From a virus, in IMG/VR virus record IMGVR_UViG_645058793_000001, positions 1 through 64,000 of that record: a stretch of DNA of 64,000 nt, one strand, 5' to 3'. This document shows, piece after piece, positions 3,084 through 64,000 of this stretch. The translations under genes were made by a program, and so were the position numbers. Numbering within the stretch: position 1 is the stretch's first letter; the number at the start of each line of letters is the position of its first letter. The notes beneath the pieces are model-generated. The model did not search any database, had not been told where the DNA came from, and saw only the letters and a program-made list of their open reading frames with translations.

Positions 3084-3421
3084 TAACTCATACTCCTAAT
3101 AATTGAATATATTGGATTTAATGCGTCCATAATATTGAATGATGATATAATTATTGTCACAACTGCTACTAGCAGTAACCCCATTGCCACCACATAATGT
3201 GCCTCACCATCGGCATAACTTTCATCACTATCTATTGCCACGCCTCTTTTATATAATGTGTGAGCTACTGAAATTAAGATAACAGTAATTACAGCATAGA
3301 TAATTGCTCCAACATAATGTGCAACTACGTATTGATGCACCATTGTATCAACCATACTTGGCATGTTTTGTGCGCCGCTGTTTATGGTGTCGATTAACTT
3401 AGCGATTGCTTTATCTGTCAT
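3083..3421 (-). CDS. hypothetical membrane protein (112 aa)
   Basis: Three hydrophobic helices. Confidence 0.4.
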   Translation of the reverse strand: MTDKAIAKLIDTINSGAQNMPSMVDTMVHQYVVAHYVGAIIYAVITVILISVAHTLYKRGVAIDSDESYADGEAHYVVAMGLLLVAVVTIIISSFNIMDALNPIYSIIRSMS

Positions 3422-4358
3422 TGATCACACCTCTAATCACTGTGGAAATCTGCTTGTTTAATTCCTTGTTTACTACTGGCTCAACTAATTCTTGTGATAC
3501 ACCTTCATCACGAACATATTCTTTAATAATGTCAGCCTTTACAGCTTTGCTTAATTCACCAAAGTTTTTAAAGTCCAACTCAATACCATGTGATGATACA
3601 TTCATGACACGATTATCAGTTACATAGCGCTCAACATCGATTGCCAACGCTGATAATTCATGAGGTTGACTATGTTTCTTAGGTACGTGTCGCACTTCAA
3701 GATATTTATCAGTCTTGTGTTTAACTACTCGGTAGTGTTCCAGTTCATTGCTATCGTACAGACTAGCTTTAAATGGTTTATATACTAACCCCTCGCTGAT
3801 ACCGCCGTATAATGATTTTTCGCTAGGTGTTTGTTTTAATAACTCTCCCAATGGTTGTGGTTCACTAACCGTTTCAACCATGAAATCATTAACTATTGCT
3901 TGTAAGTCATAAAGGTCAGGTTGCAAAAATTTATCTTCAACAATCAGAATCGCATCATATAACACAACTGCTTTACCTTTTACGTCATAATTTGATCGTT
4001 GAATTTTATCTCCGTATAACTCCCCATAGATATGTGCTTCAACAATCTTACTATCATAGATAAAATCAATTGCTTCACGCATGGTATCAACATCTTCATG
4101 ACTGATTAAATCAGGTAACACATTGAAAGGTTTTTCGTCTGGATCTTTAATAAATCCTGACCGCTTACCAAACTTATACTCACCAGTTGCCATATCGATT
4201 GTGATAGAAACGTTTGATCCGTCTACTTTTTCAGTAGCATACATCAGTTCATTCAATTCAAAATTACGTTCGTCAACTTTATAGTGATTAGTTAATGATG
4301 GATATTTTAGAAATTTCATTACGATTCCTTTCGCCATACGCTGTGACCAGTGAACCAT
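3411..4358 (-). CDS. ATP-dependent RNA/DNA ligase-like nucleotidyltransferase
   Basis: Motif I KVDGSN (KxDG); motif IV-like EGLVYK; motif V-like KHKTDK; 315 aa is in the range of Rnl2-type RNA ligases. Confidence 0.5.
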   Translation of the reverse strand: MVHWSQRMAKGIVMKFLKYPSLTNHYKVDERNFELNELMYATEKVDGSNVSITIDMATGEYKFGKRSGFIKDPDEKPFNVLPDLISHEDVDTMREAIDFIYDSKIVEAHIYGELYGDKIQRSNYDVKGKAVVLYDAILIVEDKFLQPDLYDLQAIVNDFMVETVSEPQPLGELLKQTPSEKSLYGGISEGLVYKPFKASLYDSNELEHYRVVKHKTDKYLEVRHVPKKHSQPHELSALAIDVERYVTDNRVMNVSSHGIELDFKNFGELSKAVKADIIKEYVRDEGVSQELVEPVVNKELNKQISTVIRGVINDR

Positions 4359-5034: not shown

Positions 5035-5285
5035 TAATTGTTCTCCTCATCTAATTCTTGTGCGACATTTAAAAACTTGCGAAATTTATTACCGACTTCT
5101 AACACTTTATCTTCATCAGTGAATTCCTCCATAGCCATGTGGAAACGCTCGACAATAACGTCTTTATCTAAGTCTGCAACTTCCAATGCCCATGCAGTTT
5201 GGTAATACAAAAGGTCTTTATAGGTTAGTTTCATAATAATGTCTCCTACATACTGGTACGTAATCGTCGTCACCGCCAATAACAA
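5034..5285 (-). CDS. hypothetical protein (83 aa)
   Basis: ORF. Confidence 0.35.
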   Translation of the reverse strand: MLLAVTTITYQYVGDIIMKLTYKDLLYYQTAWALEVADLDKDVIVERFHMAMEEFTDEDKVLEVGNKFRKFLNVAQELDEENN

Positions 5286-5763
5286 TCTGTTCTGTACTAT
5301 CTGACAATCGCTTATTCATAGTTGCCTTGTGTCCACAATAGTTACAAATTGTTTTCATCTCTGAAATCTTATCGGCAAATACTAGCAACGCTTCCGAACC
5401 TTCGAACAAACAATTATCGAAATCATTCTTTAACCCGAAACACATCACTGGTATATCATTTGTATCCACAATTTTTGCCAGTGCAACCACCTGCTTACGT
5501 GTCAAAAATTGTGCCTCATCAATTAAGATTGCTGCATAGCCGTCAGTATTTAGCTGGGATAAATCTTCGTCCATGCCAATTGCATAAGCATCGCTTTCCA
5601 TACCGATACGTGACGTGATTTTCCCTATTCCATAACGTGTATCAACGCTACTGGTTGCTAGTAGCACACGTCGATTTTGTTGCTGGTAATTATGTGCAAC
5701 CTTTAATATCTCAATGCTTTTACCGCTCGCCATTGTGCCGTATTTATAAAATAACTGAGCCAT
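5218..5763 (-). CDS. tdk: thymidine kinase
   Basis: P-loop YGTMASGKS and a C-terminal zinc ribbon CNYCG...PVCRRH typical of type II thymidine kinases. Confidence 0.85.
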   Translation of the reverse strand: MAQLFYKYGTMASGKSIEILKVAHNYQQQNRRVLLATSSVDTRYGIGKITSRIGMESDAYAIGMDEDLSQLNTDGYAAILIDEAQFLTRKQVVALAKIVDTNDIPVMCFGLKNDFDNCLFEGSEALLVFADKISEMKTICNYCGHKATMNKRLSDSTEQIVIGGDDDYVPVCRRHYYETNL

Positions 5764-26522: not shown

Positions 26523-26529
26523 GTTTAAC

Positions 26530-26568
26530 GACTGGCTATCGCGTATGTGCAACTGCTAGTCGTTTTTT
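26530..26568 (+). terminator. rho-independent terminator of the par operon
   Basis: ACGACTGG...CTAGTCGT hairpin followed by TTTTTT. Confidence 0.5.
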
Positions 26569-26569
26569 A

Positions 26570-27456
26570 ACGCTATCCAAAACGCTCGCTGTACAAGTGA
26601 ACTTAATGTACGACTAAATTATATCCAGAACCGATTGTTAGTATCCTGCAGTCACTTAGTAGCCTCAAGCCGGCAGGCATTTATCACTTACGTTCTTTTA
26701 AAAATCTTCTAAAACCTTTGACAAGTAACCAAGATTAACGCTTTGAGCGCTAGGAGTGAGTTGAAGATACAGTTCACCCATAAGTCGTAGTATGAACCGT
26801 AACTGAATTGATTAACGCTTCTCGCGAAGTCGGTCGTCTCATCACATCTATCGCTCACTCATAACATTACTTTACCATGTGTCGGATTCCGTATACCTGC
26901 ATGTTTTGATTTCTCAATTTGTAACGTCCATTCGTTTGTCTTACCAAACGAGGAATCGTAGATCAACCTAGTTACCGTTCATAGCGTATAACCACGTCAA
27001 TGTTTTGCCACCCACAAGCCCAGTTAATCATGCGTTAATATTAATATTTAACGTTTAGAAATTTTCCCATTACTGAGTTGGAAGCCAGAGGCAGTGTCCT
27101 TAGATGCGCTCCCCACACCCCGATACACCTGATAGAAAGTAGCATATCGGGAAGCCCTTTGAATAACCGCGGTAACCTCTCCGCGCCACAATGTGGATAA
27201 CCAATGACGAAGGTTTCTCACGCAAAAAAAGAGACTCCAGTTACAATCCATCTGTTGTAATCGAAGTCTCTACTTGCTTGAAATTCTATCTGAAATAGGT
27301 TATAATTATCCTATTAAATAAAGATAGTAATTCTTTGTGAGTCGTTATCAAGGTCTGCCAACCAAGATAACATTTCGATACTCGCAACGTGTGAATGAGA
27401 TTGCTAATATCTGGAACACTTCAAAGCCTGCCAGCTGAGAAGTGTTCTTTTTTTGT
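26570..27456 (+). ncRNA. candidate large structured ncRNA (ORF-free, terminator-bounded)
   Basis: About 900 nt without a credible ORF, GC content visibly above the flanking genes, many local hairpins (e.g. CCGATA...TATCGG, CGCGG...CCGCG), ends at a strong plus-strand terminator at 27414-27456. Confidence 0.25.
27414..27456 (+). terminator. rho-independent terminator
   Basis: GAACACTTC ... GAAGTGTTC 9-bp stem followed by TTTTTTTG. Confidence 0.55.
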
Positions 27457-27559
27457 ATTAAGTTATTTGATGTCTCAATCATAACCTATCGGTGGGCTAG
27501 AAGTCAACAACCAAATTGTAAGAATTGCTAAAGACGTATTAAAGTTTACATAATCTATA

Positions 27560-27754
27560 TTATCGTAAGTTGTTTTTCTTTTCTAATTCCGCTAATTTTT
27601 GACGCAACAACTCGTTTTCAAGCCGTGCGTTCTGCTCGTTAATCTTATTCATTTTATATTGCTGACCTTGATTAGATCCCTCTATAAACGAATTAAATAT
27701 ATACCCGATTGAACCAATAACAAACAATACTAATGCTAATACAAATGGCCACAT
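27560..27754 (-). CDS. small membrane/coiled-coil protein (64 aa), possible lysis accessory
   Basis: N-terminal TM helix then coiled coil. Confidence 0.4.
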   Translation of the reverse strand: MWPFVLALVLFVIGSIGYIFNSFIEGSNQGQQYKMNKINEQNARLENELLRQKLAELEKKNNLR

Positions 27755-27789
27755 AACAATTACCCTCCGTTTTAAATATATTTATTATA

Positions 27790-27832
27790 CACAAAAAGCC
27801 CCACCAGTACCATCAGATACCAGTGGGGCAAT
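27790..27832 (-). terminator. rho-independent terminator (minus strand)
   Basis: GCCCCACCAGTA...TACCAGTGGGGC hairpin followed by T-run on the minus strand. Confidence 0.5.
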
Positions 27833-27834
27833 GG

Positions 27835-27870
27835 GTTAACGTAAATGTATACGTTAACGTTAACGTTATT
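27835..27870. repeat. ACGTWW hexamer array, copy E (GTTAACGTAAATGTATACGTTAACGTTAACGTTATT)
   Basis: Seen directly; lies between the endolysin stop and its terminator. Confidence 0.6.
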
Positions 27871-54695: not shown

Positions 54696-54754
54696 TATTG
54701 TTCTCGTTTCATATTGTTTTACTTTAATATTACTTTATAAAACAGTGTATAAAA

Positions 54755-54771
54755 TCTACAATTAGTCTACA
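54755..54771. repeat. TCTACAATTAGTCTACA element, same as the tandem copies at 51424-51452
   Basis: Exact sequence identity with the copies upstream of the portal gene. Confidence 0.55.
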
Positions 54772-55475
54772 TTTGCAATTAGCCCTATCCCTTTGTACTA
54801 CTGGTTTTTTCGTGAAGTTTATATTTATTAGGCAACATGTTGAACAATAAAATGAAGATGAAAAAATGAAGTTTTTGCACACGAAGGGCAATCCCGTTCA
54901 ATAGTTATATTTTTAATCCATATACCTTTGGTAGGGGGGTACTTATAAACATTGATATACCAAGGGTTACAGCTATTTAAAGCAGGTAGACCAATCAAAT
55001 TATTTGGTTTCAAAAAGTTATACTATTTTAAATCTGTTCGGTGTTTCTGATCGTGTTTGATCGACCGCTCGATGTATATTTATGCAAGGTTATGTATAAA
55101 TATAAATGTTAGTCACGGTTAAATAATAAGTATGTCATTGTGTATGTAGTCTATTCTGATTGTTGTAAAAAACGAATAGAACATAGTATGTATATCTAGA
55201 TGTAGTAGTATATATGTATAGATAGTTGTTAGATACGTTAGTACATGTATCTATACAACCTAGTACGCAATACTAGATACATTCTTATTTGTTTCTATGG
55301 TAGAAAAGTAGTAATAAAAAGAATTTTAAAAGTCATGTAACCGTTGTGGCCGTAAGATCCGTGACGTGTTTGTACATGTGCATTTGCAAATTAGTTGTTG
55401 ACAGTTAATACATACCGTGAGATTATAGTTATGTCGAAAGGCAACAACGACAAAAAATAAAAGTTCCAAAAATGC

Positions 55476-55505
55476 CTTGACAAGTTGAAACATACTTGAT
55501 AACAT
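55476..55505 (+). promoter_or_regulatory. sigma70-like promoter P1 (TTGACA-18-TAACAT)
   Basis: Consensus -35 plus a GTTGAAAC element; first of three copies of a ~30-bp repeat. Confidence 0.45.
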
Positions 55506-55651
55506 GGTGTTGTTGAGTTGGTCACTAAGGTTTGCGGGTACGTCCCCTTACTTCGGTAATTGTTAACAGTGATGTATCGCTTGTTACATATCAGTTAGTA
55601 CCGTTACGCGGTCGCTGGTAACACCCAATACAGTGATGTTAAAAATTAAAC

Positions 55652-55681
55652 TTGACATGTTGAAACTAACCATGTTACAAT
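55652..55681 (+). promoter_or_regulatory. sigma70-like promoter P2 (TTGACA-18-TACAAT)
   Basis: Second copy of the repeat. Confidence 0.45.
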
Positions 55682-55731
55682 GGTTTTGTTGATTGATAAC
55701 CACAACGTTAAAAAAGTTTATCAATTAAATG

Positions 55732-55760
55732 TTGACAAGTTGAAACTAACCTGATAGCAT
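55732..55760 (+). promoter_or_regulatory. sigma70-like promoter P3 (TTGACA-17-TAGCAT)
   Basis: Third copy of the repeat. Confidence 0.45.
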
Positions 55761-56016
55761 TTAAGTCGTTGGCAAAGGTTGAAACTTACCAACCCAATCA
55801 CAATAGTTTTAGTTCATTGACAATTAAATAGCGCGCTAGATTGATAGGGTCGCTGGGGTCTGCGGATACGTACGACAGTACAGGATAACCAGAATGTATG
55901 CGGTGGTAAGCCGTATATAGAAGTGATGTATAAAATGAGCGCGAATGATTGGTAATAGTACGCCAATAATACATATACGATTTGGATATATGAAACGAAA
56001 GGAAAAGGTGAAATTT

Positions 56017-61649: not shown

Positions 61650-61938
61650 AACCTTTAACCTCCAACATCAAACGAAAGTCATTGCTATTATTTAATTGAT
61701 TGACAATGCTATCTAGGAACCGTTTCATATTCGGCATCGGATTAACAGTAATGTCAGGTAACACATCTAGATCACTATCGTATACACCATAATCAGTAGT
61801 CGTAAAATGGTGTTCGAACAATGGTCTGCCGTATGTTACAAATGAACTATTCCAAACCATGAACATCACGTTGTGGACATCATGCAAGTCGCAATTGTCT
61901 TTCATATATTTAGCTATTGTTAGTTTATCCACAATCAT
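61597..61938 (-). CDS. hypothetical protein (113 aa)
   Basis: ORF. Confidence 0.4.
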   Translation of the reverse strand: MIVDKLTIAKYMKDNCDLHDVHNVMFMVWNSSFVTYGRPLFEHHFTTTDYGVYDSDLDVLPDITVNPMPNMKRFLDSIVNQLNNSNDFRLMLEVKGYVKKLQTQHVAARQVVS

Positions 61939-62785
61939 TCCTCCTACTAAAAAGGAACGCCTTTAAACGTTCCCTAATTATATGTATTGCACGACTACTA
62001 GCTAGTACCGCTGTTCCTCACCGTATCTTCGTGGCGAAACAACGCTAGTCGTACAAGTACACTGCAACTTTATCTAGAATGGGTGTTGCGAACCCACAGT
62101 TCATCTGTTCATCGTGTCTATTGTAAAGACGTAAGTAACTCAACCCTTCCGACCAGTTACCATTGGTTTTGTGCGTGTCACACAGGATATTATATGTATG
62201 CCGGCTTGAGAATATAGCCACAGCTCGAACGCCTTTAATTGCATTATGATTTCGCAACGTTTCCACGCTATCCCTAACGTATCGTTCATGTTCATATTAT
62301 TACTTCATAAGTATCTCGGCACGTTTCACTTAGGTAAGATGCAGCTAACATCTAACTTGCGCTACTAGTTACTGAACCGTTTCGTCTTGCGAACAGCCAC
62401 GGCACTCACTTCGTTATTGTAACGGTGAGTATTAGAACACATCACTCATGAAGGCAAAGCACTTTTGCTTGTAAGTATAATGTTTAATAGATTGTATTAT
62501 TTACCGGTCAATTCAACGATGTGGCCTTGCAGGAGTTCCGTTACCTTTTGAGTAACAGAATGCTCCACACCGCCTATTGTGTTTTGTTTGTAGGACGCAA
62601 CACTTGAAGTAGTGATCACTGGTTGTCAGTCAGCAATATAATTCATTCGTATCGCATGCGATTTACGGTCGCATACTGTTTAGTAGTCCTTTGGAATGAC
62701 CGTTGACATGGTGTCTCATCATTTGACATCAACCAAGCGTTCCTTAGGACTACATTACGTGCATAGATTGACCATTACTGGCACG

Positions 62786-62820
62786 ACTACGAATTCCGAG
62801 TAGTCTTTTTCGCTAACGTC
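62786..62820 (+). terminator. plus-strand rho-independent terminator inside the ORF-free region
   Basis: GACTAC-GAATTCCGA-GTAGTC hairpin followed by TTTTTCG. Confidence 0.45.
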
Positions 62821-62921
62821 ACCGCTAGTTATCAGGGCTATGCCCCCTATGAATACCCCGCTTTGCCAAACATCAACTAGGAGGATTTTAATTAAGTTTA
62901 TCGCCTGCACTTAATCTTTAA

Positions 62922-62964
62922 TATCCGTAACCGGAATCGAACCGATTATTACTACCATACGGAC
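62922..62964 (-). other. tRNA-like minihelix (acceptor stem + T-arm only)
   Basis: GTCCGTA/TACGGAT acceptor pairing and GGTTCGATTCC T-loop, but only 11 nt between them. Confidence 0.3.
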
Positions 62965-63013
62965 ACCACATTTAAATAGAAATATCAGAATAGCCACAAG
63001 AAAATGTAGCTAA

Positions 63014-63086
63014 CGAGAACTACTGGATTCGAACCAGTGACATCATGATTAACGATCATACGCTCTACCAACTGAGCTAAGTTCCC
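63014..63086 (-). tRNA. tRNA, Asn-like (anticodon GTT)
   Basis: Hand-folded canonical cloverleaf: acceptor GGGAACT/AGTTCTC, D-stem GCTC/GAGC, anticodon stem TATGA/TCATG with loop TCGTTAA, variable loop ATGTC, T-arm ACTGG-TTCGAAT-CCAGT; position 33 is C rather than U. Confidence 0.65.
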
Positions 63087-63158
63087 ATAAATGGTAGCAA
63101 GCCGGGAAACTATGCTACCTATAAGGATAATGTTTTGCTAATCCAAAGGATAAGCAAT

Positions 63159-63220
63159 GCAATAGCCGAAGATTCGAACTCCGCATAGTTACAATTAAGA
63201 ACTACGACCACCTACTATTG
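63159..63220 (-). other. non-canonical tRNA-like element lacking a D-arm
   Basis: Acceptor CAATAGT/GCTATTG; T-arm CGGAG-TTCGAAT-CTTCG; anticodon-like stem TAGTT/AACTA; only 30 nt between acceptor and T-stem. Confidence 0.3.
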
Positions 63221-63358
63221 TCAACGATAGTAAGGCACCCAGTGCTGACAATTAAATTGCTTTCTACCGTTTATTCACAACCAGTAATATGTGATACCTA
63301 GGGTTCTGTCCTACCATAATAATGTGTGAGACAGTCACGCATACTTTAGTTTGTGATA

Positions 63359-63429
63359 TGCCACGGTCGGGATTCGAACCCAACACTCACTATCGGATGA
63401 AATAGCAAGTTGACCTCATACTCCGTGGC
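63359..63429 (-). tRNA. tRNA-like element with non-canonical D/anticodon region
   Basis: Perfect 7-bp acceptor GCCACGG/CCGTGGC and T-arm TTGGG-TTCGAAT-CCCGA; possible anticodon loop containing CAT; D-arm not foldable by eye. Confidence 0.35.
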
Positions 63430-63906
63430 TGTTATGTCAGACTTCCGACTATCGGTGAGACATAACAATCACCGTAGGACACTAACGATATATGTGCCAA
63501 GTGTTACCGTTACCAAGTCTTGAAAGATATTAACCACCGCATCACCAGTCGGTTAATAGTTTCTCATTGATAATCCAATTAATGAACAGAATCTTATTAG
63601 GCGCGACCTAAATGGCTGTCAACTGTTCAAGAGGATCGTCCTAAATCGAACGGGAATCTTGGCTGTTCCTACCATGCAATTACCATTATTGCTACGATCC
63701 TGTTCGGAATGTGTGAGGCACGATCTCACAACTGATATATACCAGCAACGGTTTAGCGAACCGCCTGCTAACCAACTTCGCTTACATTCCATATATGCCA
63801 GGAGCTACCCTGGACTTTCGTAGACACACAATGCCTAGCTAGTTAAGCCTCCTCATCACGGACGTTCTCGGTGTGACCTATTCCGTACATTTACAGTGTC
63901 CTACTA

Positions 63907-63986
63907 CGTGAGCGGCAGGAATCGAACCTACGATGCATGAGAGGTTTTCAAGACCTCATGCAATCTTTCAAGTATATGGTACTCAC
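63907..63986 (-). other. tRNA-like element with elongated anticodon-type hairpin (loop CTTGAAA, TGA)
   Basis: T-arm GTAGG-TTCGATT-CCTGC; acceptor 6/7 bp; hairpin GCATGAGGT...ACCTCTCATGC of about 10 bp instead of a 5-bp anticodon stem; no recognisable D-arm. Confidence 0.3.
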
Positions 63987-64000
63987 ACATTATGCAAGTA

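Follow-up and report, generated by a model that had tools for sequence, protein, structure and literature searches.

A GOLLD RNA, a tRNA-Asn and a mosaic of tRNA-derived elements on the minus strand of a phage genome

The last 2 kb of a 64,000-nucleotide (nt) stretch of viral DNA, IMG/VR record IMGVR_UViG_645058793_000001, is a minus-strand non-coding RNA island that contains GOLLD, a known giant structured RNA, together with a single normal tRNA and a series of tRNA-derived fragments. The whole stretch is referred to as the window, and coordinates are positions in it; the RNAs of the island are encoded on the minus strand. Islands of this kind are familiar from phages, and this one is not a new system. 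The best overall explanation, which is very probably correct, is that the core is formed by tRNA-Asn(GUU) and GOLLD and that the upstream part is a remnant tRNA mosaic. The identities of these elements, their strand, the RNA structures and the comparative pattern were determined here. In the proposed order of transcription the core would consist of tRNA-Asn(GUU), a 272-nt 5′ domain and a 373-nt 3′ domain of GOLLD, a trailer of about 230 nt and an intrinsic terminator, with the following features.

63014–63086, minus: canonical tRNA-Asn(GUU), found with ARAGORN and the Rfam tRNA model.
62852–63010, minus: window-specific insert of 159 nt between tRNA-Asn and GOLLD, with minihelix A (62922–62964).
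62576–62847, minus: lineage-specific 5′ domain of GOLLD, 272 nt, from nhmmer homology and covariation.
62786–62820, minus: helix 4 of the GOLLD 5′ domain, with five of eight pairs compensatory between lineages.
62203–62575, minus: conserved 3′ domain of GOLLD (Rfam RF02032, 173.4 bits, E 5e-47).
61976–62202, minus: 3′ trailer after GOLLD, about 230 nt, holding a T-arm-like hairpin (62080–62096).
61952–61975, minus: intrinsic-terminator-like hairpin of 10 bp followed by UUUUU (−11.5 kcal/mol, z −3.5).

Scanning the window with all Rfam families gave two matches above the curated thresholds, a tRNA and GOLLD. With Infernal, the full GOLLD model (positions 1–416) was matched above its gathering score of 150, and on the minus strand only. 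A first-pass annotation had described 62000–62900 as a non-coding block with a plus-strand terminator, had pointed to large RNAs of the GOLLD or ROOL type beside tRNAs, and had recommended an Infernal search. That search found GOLLD, next to tRNAs, and the block is conserved in relatives; for ROOL and for transfer-messenger RNA (tmRNA) there was no Rfam match at E≤10 in 61800–64000, nor did ARAGORN report a tmRNA. Strand and extent of the block had to be corrected: GOLLD is a minus-strand RNA that spans 62847 to 62203, and the trailer continues from there to the minus-strand terminator near 61952–61975. The same permissive scan of 61800–64000 (E≤10) returned four matches, the additional two being a 22-bit tRNA-Sec-like match at 63908–63986 and a chance-level snoRNA.

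For the 113-aa protein encoded beside the island, exact look-up and an IMG/VR search gave nothing; one homologue of 92% identity was found, and the contigs that encode it, L149, L150 and L151, come from close relatives of this phage. The search for further haplotypes led to a third one, L232, via a nucleoside deoxyribosyltransferase gene (81% identity). The same gene, at 50–56% identity, occurs in the more distant loci L234, L235, L236 and L238, where GOLLD is present as well. Near and distant DNA searches of 50,697 phage records with the region returned nothing beyond generic tRNA similarity. In L149–L151 GOLLD scored 171 bits, and the 3′ domain (62575–62203) is 98.9–99.2% identical in L149 and L232. 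All ten pairs of its pseudoknot are formed in the cmscan alignment, and a G-to-A change in L149 converts a G-U pair to A-U. The A/U-rich internal linker, about 45 nt near 62470–62513, is without a tRNA.

GOLLD RNAs combine a universally conserved 3′ domain with a variable 5′ domain and occur in phages and prophages near tRNA islands (PMC12286853, PMC12990946). Homology of the window with L149 and L232 begins at 62847 and continues through the Rfam match, with 97.8–98.5% identity over the 5′ part (62847–62576). Upon comparison with the GOLLD loci of L238, L236 and L234, nhmmer gave an E-value of 2e-38 for the 3′ part and of 5e-10 for the 5′ part, the latter in the region upstream of the 3′ domain. 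RNAalifold, applied to an alignment of six sequences that effectively compares two lineages, predicted 46 pairs in ten helices, 16 of them compensatory; 98.9% of the cells were paired, versus 25–42% in controls with the partners slid by 1–3 columns. The sixteen compensatory pairs give strong support to the prediction that 62576–62847 is the 5′ domain of GOLLD. Invariant G-U pairs in this domain would be C-A on the other strand and thus fix the strand as minus.

GOLLD loci were collected by sequence signatures, resulting in about 45 full-length matches with many near-duplicates. Most of these have a tRNA that ends 320–450 nt ahead of the 3′ domain, which places it immediately before the 5′ domain; a further tRNA begins within some 45 nt after the 3′ domain in about 30 of them (10 nt in L234). 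The first search pattern produced mostly chance matches. An invariant 29-nt hairpin signature recovered only actinobacterial loci from the genome collection, a lineage-specific version of it found nothing in metagenomes, and 80 loci reached via the terminase (identity at most 58%) contained no GOLLD.

At its default threshold ARAGORN called tRNA-Asn(GTT), at 63013–63087 on the minus strand, as the only tRNA of the window, and the Rfam tRNA model RF00005 scored it at 66 bits versus 29. The canonical Asn tRNA folded by hand at first pass (63014–63086, minus) is therefore confirmed. Its variable loop and T-arm had also been called identical to those of E. coli tRNA-Asn; with 87–90% identity over the 3′ 31 nt, the two are similar and not identical. 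The tRNA is 98.7% identical in L149 and is also present in L232. Between it and the GOLLD 5′ domain lie 166 nt in the window and 7–11 nt in the relatives, where the site of the 159-nt insert measures 7 nt (L149) and 11 nt (L232).

On the 3′ side, the trailer (62202–61976) is 81–93% identical in L149 and L232, versus 98–99% for GOLLD. One pair of its T-arm-like hairpin is G-C, A-U and G-U across the three haplotypes, and ARAGORN found only a sub-threshold match there (62070–62159). A derivation of the trailer from the tRNA-Ala that follows GOLLD in L234, as a decayed copy, was rejected for lack of any similarity between the two. The terminator-like hairpin stands directly before the ribosome binding site and start of the 113-aa gene. 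Its stem is kept in L149 and L232, with changes in the loop only, and it was not listed by the consensus terminator scan. At the other end, the best promoter match, TTGATT-17-TATAAT (L149 4442–4470), adjoins a CI-like gene that is divergent from the RNA island.

In the proposed model, one island precursor would be transcribed from a promoter beside this CI-like repressor gene, just outside the window. Given the arrangement of the tRNAs and what is generally known of these enzymes, RNase P and RNase Z would cut at tRNA-Asn and possibly at the tRNA-like elements, by which the tRNA would be released and the ends of GOLLD set. GOLLD would then self-assemble, forming a multimeric RNA cage like those whose structures are solved for other members of the family, and would act in lytic growth. 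Self-assembly into a closed cage, of 10 to 14 copies in the family, is known for env-38 and Streptococcus agalactiae GOLLD, both of which have cryo-EM structures; the cages are 12- to 14-mers and GOLLD increases during lysis, while its cellular role is unknown across the family (PMC12286853, PMC12990946). The rise during lytic growth refers to a Lactobacillus brevis prophage, as cited in PMC12286853.

Upstream of tRNA-Asn, in the direction of transcription, the island holds the following elements.

63907–64000, minus: 3′ two-thirds of element D, a tRNA-like element of 142 nt whose 5′ end lies about 48 nt past the window end.
63792–63906, minus: block 1, a conserved structured non-tRNA module, from nhmmer and covariation.
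63704–63791, minus: type-II tRNA-Ser-like element with anticodon GCU (ARAGORN 90%), with a long variable arm and an aberrant T loop.
63631–63701, minus: Phe-like element (‘Phe GAA’, ARAGORN 90%) with a 7-bp acceptor, a 4-bp D stem, G33 and C37.
63359–63429, minus: element C, tRNA-like, with a perfect 7-bp acceptor and T arm, no D stem and an 8-nt anticodon-type loop.
63223–63356, minus: block 2, a conserved structured non-tRNA module, conserved in L149, L232 and L240.
63160–63220, minus: element B, D-armless and tRNA-like (acceptor, one hairpin and T arm; ARAGORN 90%).

Exactly four copies of the motif GGTTCGAWTCC exist in the 64 kb; each is on the minus strand and falls between 62933 and 63928. 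About 1.1 would be expected window-wide even with one mismatch allowed. When ARAGORN was run at 90% of its threshold, five matches appeared in the island, all on the minus strand, and none in the other 62 kb. At 85% these numbers were six and three, and at 80% ten (nine minus) and 34, with about one match at 80% in shuffles of the island. All four tRNA-like loci noticed at first pass are tRNA-derived sequence, and two further ones (63631–63701 and 63704–63791) had been missed. The suggested ARAGORN run brought up no standard tRNAs that explain these elements: A, B, C and the Phe-like and Ser(GCU)-like elements surface only at 80–90% of the threshold, with no call at default and no Rfam tRNA match at E≤10. 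Their defects are the missing D arm in A, B and C, an anticodon loop of 8–9 nt in B and C, G33 and C37 in the Phe-like element and the T loop AUCGUGC in the Ser-like element.

Minihelix A, an acceptor/T-arm structure, contains an exact GGTTCGATTCC at 62933–62943, is called by ARAGORN at the 80% threshold only and has a fold z of −0.06. Element B is called at 90% (63159–63230) and in mitochondrial mode. Element C, called at 80% only and with a 4-base anticodon (fold z −3.0), aligns to a tRNA with anticodon UCA in L234 and L238. The latter is a 72-nt tRNA (L234 1937–2008, L238 2584–2655) that would read UGA and is called by ARAGORN at default within an array of 21–23 tRNAs. The T-stem mismatch of the Phe-like element in the window is a perfect pairing in L149. 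The Ser-like element, in which none of 88 positions differs from L149, resembles the tRNA-Ser of L234 and L236 (z 10.5).

Element D could be followed beyond the window in L149 (4849–4990), where the complete 142 nt include D and T arms, an acceptor stem of 7 bp and a 72–76-nt insert in the anticodon region. The Rfam tRNA model matches it at 34 bits versus 29, but only if a 76-nt stretch inserted in the anticodon loop is passed over; at minimum energy it folds as a five-way junction (z −3.8). It sits at the position of tRNA-Trp in L234–L238. The first-pass annotation was right that 63907–63986 is tRNA-derived and wrong on its boundaries, as it is the 3′ part of the 142-nt unit: the ‘acceptor’ that had been paired is a partial repeat within the insert, and the true 5′ strand lies about 48 nt beyond the window. 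ARAGORN reports element D only when introns are allowed, as a tRNA-Leu(AAG) with a 72-nt intron. In this mode no calls were made in 1.2 Mb of control phage DNA, from which it follows that the two tRNA halves are real. A spliced tRNA-Leu(AAG) is unsupported, with an intron boundary chosen by the program, G73 and no long variable arm. We know of no bacterial route for removal of a tRNA insert of 72–76 nt, a length below that of group I introns.

A standard or permuted tmRNA made up of the tRNA-like ends was considered because the loci L080 and L087 carry a tmRNA upstream of tRNA-Asn and GOLLD; it was rejected, since no model matched and the acceptor partners are local. In these high-GC prophage-like contigs (L080 6454–6797, L087 6248–6649) a tmRNA is followed by tRNA-Asn and then GOLLD, the latter two in the same order as in this low-GC phage.

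Among the three haplotypes (window, L149 and L232) GOLLD is kept at 98–99% and tRNA-Asn is kept, and whole-cassette differences fall exactly at the boundaries of tRNA-like elements. L232, 97–99% identical in the GOLLD region and its flanks, is without element D, the Ser-like and Phe-like elements and element C. The slot of element C holds a good tRNA-Ser(UGA) in L149, with homology resuming exactly at its 3′ end. The slot of element B is occupied by a different tRNA-like cassette in L232 and by unrelated sequence in L149. In L234, L236 and L238, 21–23 canonical tRNAs and GOLLD precede the same deoxyribosyltransferase gene. Taken together, the kept GOLLD and tRNA-Asn, the swapped elements and the relatives with 21–23 tRNAs favour a reading of the island as a reduced mosaic tRNA array around a conserved GOLLD. 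On this reading, what lies upstream of tRNA-Asn would be left over from a full tRNA array that was reduced and reshuffled.

IS605-type TnpB genes (OrfB_IS605 / Cas12f1-like_TNB) were observed inside or beside the tRNA/GOLLD arrays of L236 (1213–2397) and L238 (8847–10596), in the latter accompanied by a resolvase-type gene. Such elements are a possible agent of cassette shuffling.

Several observations weigh against this picture of a conserved core and a decaying array. Element D and the Ser-like element have no changes in 182 nt relative to L149 and the 116 nt between them have seven, a split that by our own arithmetic would have a chance of about 0.001 if changes were random. The T stem of element B is kept through two compensatory changes, and blocks 1 and 2 are structured and conserved, unlike remnants. 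As for the core, the high identity of GOLLD among close relatives could reflect recent recombination and not selection, because neighbouring blocks range from 82 to 99% identity. At the ends of the transcript, no canonical tRNA follows GOLLD in this phage, which bears on the formation of its 3′ end, and the promoter candidate lies outside the window, in a region where consensus matches are not above chance in number.

The alternative that survives best, and that has somewhat less than an even chance, leaves GOLLD untouched and takes the part upstream of tRNA-Asn as a separate, undescribed structured non-coding RNA, which comprises both blocks and element B and received tRNA cassettes by insertion in this lineage. 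In the IMG/VR contigs L239–L243 the three pieces are contiguous over about 350 nt (L240 3025–3385), in a gene-free gap of about 600 nt that ends in a hairpin and U-run and holds no tRNA and no GOLLD. Element B is 79% conserved in these contigs; its T stem carries the two compensatory changes there, and a C-to-U change in the acceptor gives a G-U pair. For block 2, 43 pairs were predicted, eight of them compensatory versus none in all slid controls. Block 1 has a conserved fold with four compensatory pairs and matches L238 4410–4509, after tRNA-Trp, with an nhmmer E-value of 3e-18. A covariance model of block 1 found it only in this phage, its relatives, L234–L238 and L239–L243, and not in the roughly 150 other, mainly GOLLD-bearing, loci that were searched. 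None of the three pieces has an Rfam match, and the block-2 pattern found nothing in metagenomes. On the other side, the support comes from four or five lineages only, two of which are near-identical, and the pieces occur apart: block 1 stands alone after tRNA-Trp in L234–L238 and as 64 nt in L232, and element B is missing in L149 and replaced in L232.

Blocks 1 and 2 and element B are, by their modelled folds, a new structured RNA candidate present in few lineages. That together they form one undescribed non-coding RNA of Lactobacillaceae-type phages with a tRNA-like end is a tentative proposal. The same RNA may stand alone with its terminator in L239–L243 and be interrupted here by tRNA cassettes and coupled to tRNA-Asn and GOLLD. 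If so, RNase P might use the tRNA-like end as a processing signal, or this end could be a handle to the tRNA/GOLLD pathway.

A second alternative sees the non-canonical elements as functional mimics, serving as decoys or substrates of host anticodon nucleases, as suggested at first pass, or as cargo of the GOLLD cage. The substitution-free element D and Ser-like element on either side of a spacer with seven changes, the compensatory changes in B, the good fold of the 142-nt element and a phage-encoded Rnl2-family RNA ligase would all fit such a role. It is nevertheless considered unlikely: D, C and the Ser-like and Phe-like elements are all absent from the otherwise near-identical L232, the slots of C and B hold different cassettes per haplotype, the Phe-like element has lost T-stem pairing in the window that L149 retains, and apart from the 22-bit tRNA-Sec the permissive Rfam scan gave no tRNA match to these elements. 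For the decoy idea in particular, some room is left with the few elements that look constrained. The neighbouring ORFs scanned around the ligase also include no polynucleotide kinase/phosphatase as a partner for it. The ligase gene (3411–4358, minus; Pfam RNA_ligase and T4_Rnl2_C) lies near a thymidine kinase gene at 5218–5763; a role of the enzyme in tRNA repair is possible.

It is highly improbable that 62000–62900 is a plus-strand non-coding transcript with a terminator at 62786–62820, as the first-pass annotation had it. A 6-bp hairpin followed by TTTTT does exist there on the plus strand, but it is the covarying helix 4 of the minus-strand GOLLD 5′ domain, and the A-run beside it (the plus-strand T-run) reads GAAAGG in relatives. 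Likewise, 62656–62674, which the consensus scan gave as a plus-strand terminator-like sequence, corresponds to helix 10, which has six compensatory pairs. Only on the minus strand is there a match to the GOLLD model, the conserved G-U pairs would become C-A if the plus strand were transcribed, and no plus-strand gene lies upstream.

That the region hides small protein-coding genes is hardly credible either, for although the mechanical list has ORFs of 30–73 aa on both strands, no gene is called in three relatives, the longest ORFs overlap the GOLLD match, and variation between lineages tracks base-pairing and not codons. With no ORF above 73 aa from 61939 to 64000, and homologous stretches of 2.0–2.6 kb in L149 (2.6 kb), L150 and L232 without a called gene, the first-pass statement that there is no credible ORF up to the window end holds.

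The genes of the window include those for terminase, portal, major head protein, primase, helicase and endolysin, and the terminases nearest to its own (50–55% identity) are from Lactobacillus phages; the genome is that of a siphovirus of about 65 kb, probably with a Lactobacillaceae host. In a blastn map, window position 1 joins L149 3903 and position 64000 joins L149 4897. The two ends are thus about 1 kb apart, and the window, at about 64 kb, covers nearly all of a genome that is circular or permuted and measures about 65 kb. According to L149, the missing 1 kb contains the CI-like HTH gene (Pfam HTH_3 and Phage_CI_repr), and the gene-free locus extends into it for about 480 nt, by which amount the island continues when the window is extended, as had been proposed at first pass. 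The genes flanking the island are all on the minus strand, in the same direction as the RNA island.

The GC content reported as elevated for the 62000–62900 block is indeed higher, at 42.4% versus 38.8% elsewhere, a difference that is real but small. The strings that this block was said to share with 26.5–27.5 kb mostly could not be recovered. CGCTAGTCGT occurs once, at 62043 only, and GCACGACTAC at 61989 and 62781 only, so that neither is found in 26.5–27.5 kb; the third, the 8-mer GTACAAGT, is present at 26591. Counts of shared 8-, 9- and 10-mers fall inside the range seen for other 1-kb windows, and the supposed link is due to chance. Two further stretches of more than 1.2 kb are without an ORF of at least 80 aa, one at 26523–27869 and the other at 54696–55944, between divergent gene blocks. 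For the 26.3–27.9 kb gap there was no Rfam match at E≤1.

The GOLLD family was reportedly described by Weinberg et al. in 2009, and the GOLLD-containing tRNA arrays of mycobacteria and phages reportedly by Morgado et al. in 2020. GOLLD RNAs are among the largest and most elaborate RNAs of bacteria and phages and form RNA-only cages of unknown function. The present locus provides a small natural comparison, in which almost every tRNA or tRNA-like cassette differs among close relatives and tRNA-Asn and GOLLD are nearly unchanged. This suggests, on comparative grounds, that the retained part is GOLLD and not the array around it. Retention of GOLLD while the array was reduced argues against models in which it needs many neighbouring phage tRNAs. 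In addition, covariation supports a compact GOLLD 5′ domain of 272 nt, and the two small structured modules and the D-armless tRNA-like element, none of which has an Rfam counterpart, are directly testable candidates.

Compared with known members of RF02032, the GOLLD of this phage has the full-model 3′ domain with its pseudoknot, the A/U-rich linker, a variable 5′ domain and a phage context next to tRNAs, and its 3′ domain of 373 nt is of the same size as the 375 nt of S. agalactiae GOLLD (PMC12990946). It differs in its short 5′ domain, for which sequence similarity to other GOLLD loci is detectable only in the L234–L238 group, in the deletion of the hairpin at positions ~307–323 of the Rfam model, and in having no tRNA in the linker and no canonical tRNA after it, with the trailer and terminator in their place. 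To ROOL and tmRNA the likeness is one of genomic neighbourhood beside phage tRNA islands, the difference being the absence of a model match here.

tRNA-like processing signals end long non-coding RNAs of the MALAT1/mascRNA type, and bacterial RNase P cuts acceptor/T-arm minihelices. Minihelix A and the D-armless element B, which stand at the boundaries of structured RNAs, resemble such signals, B being the last element before the terminator in L240; this is an analogy of mechanism only. In arrangement the island is like the arrays of mycobacteria and mycobacteriophages, in which GOLLD is embedded in a tRNA array with associated pseudo-tRNAs, one of them reported within a GOLLD gene (PMC6582537). 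A tRNA-Asn upstream of GOLLD also occurs in the actinobacterial loci L080, L087, L133, L134 and L143. The mycobacterial arrays hold 11–37 intact tRNAs, whereas the island described here has one (two in L149) together with about eight non-canonical elements.

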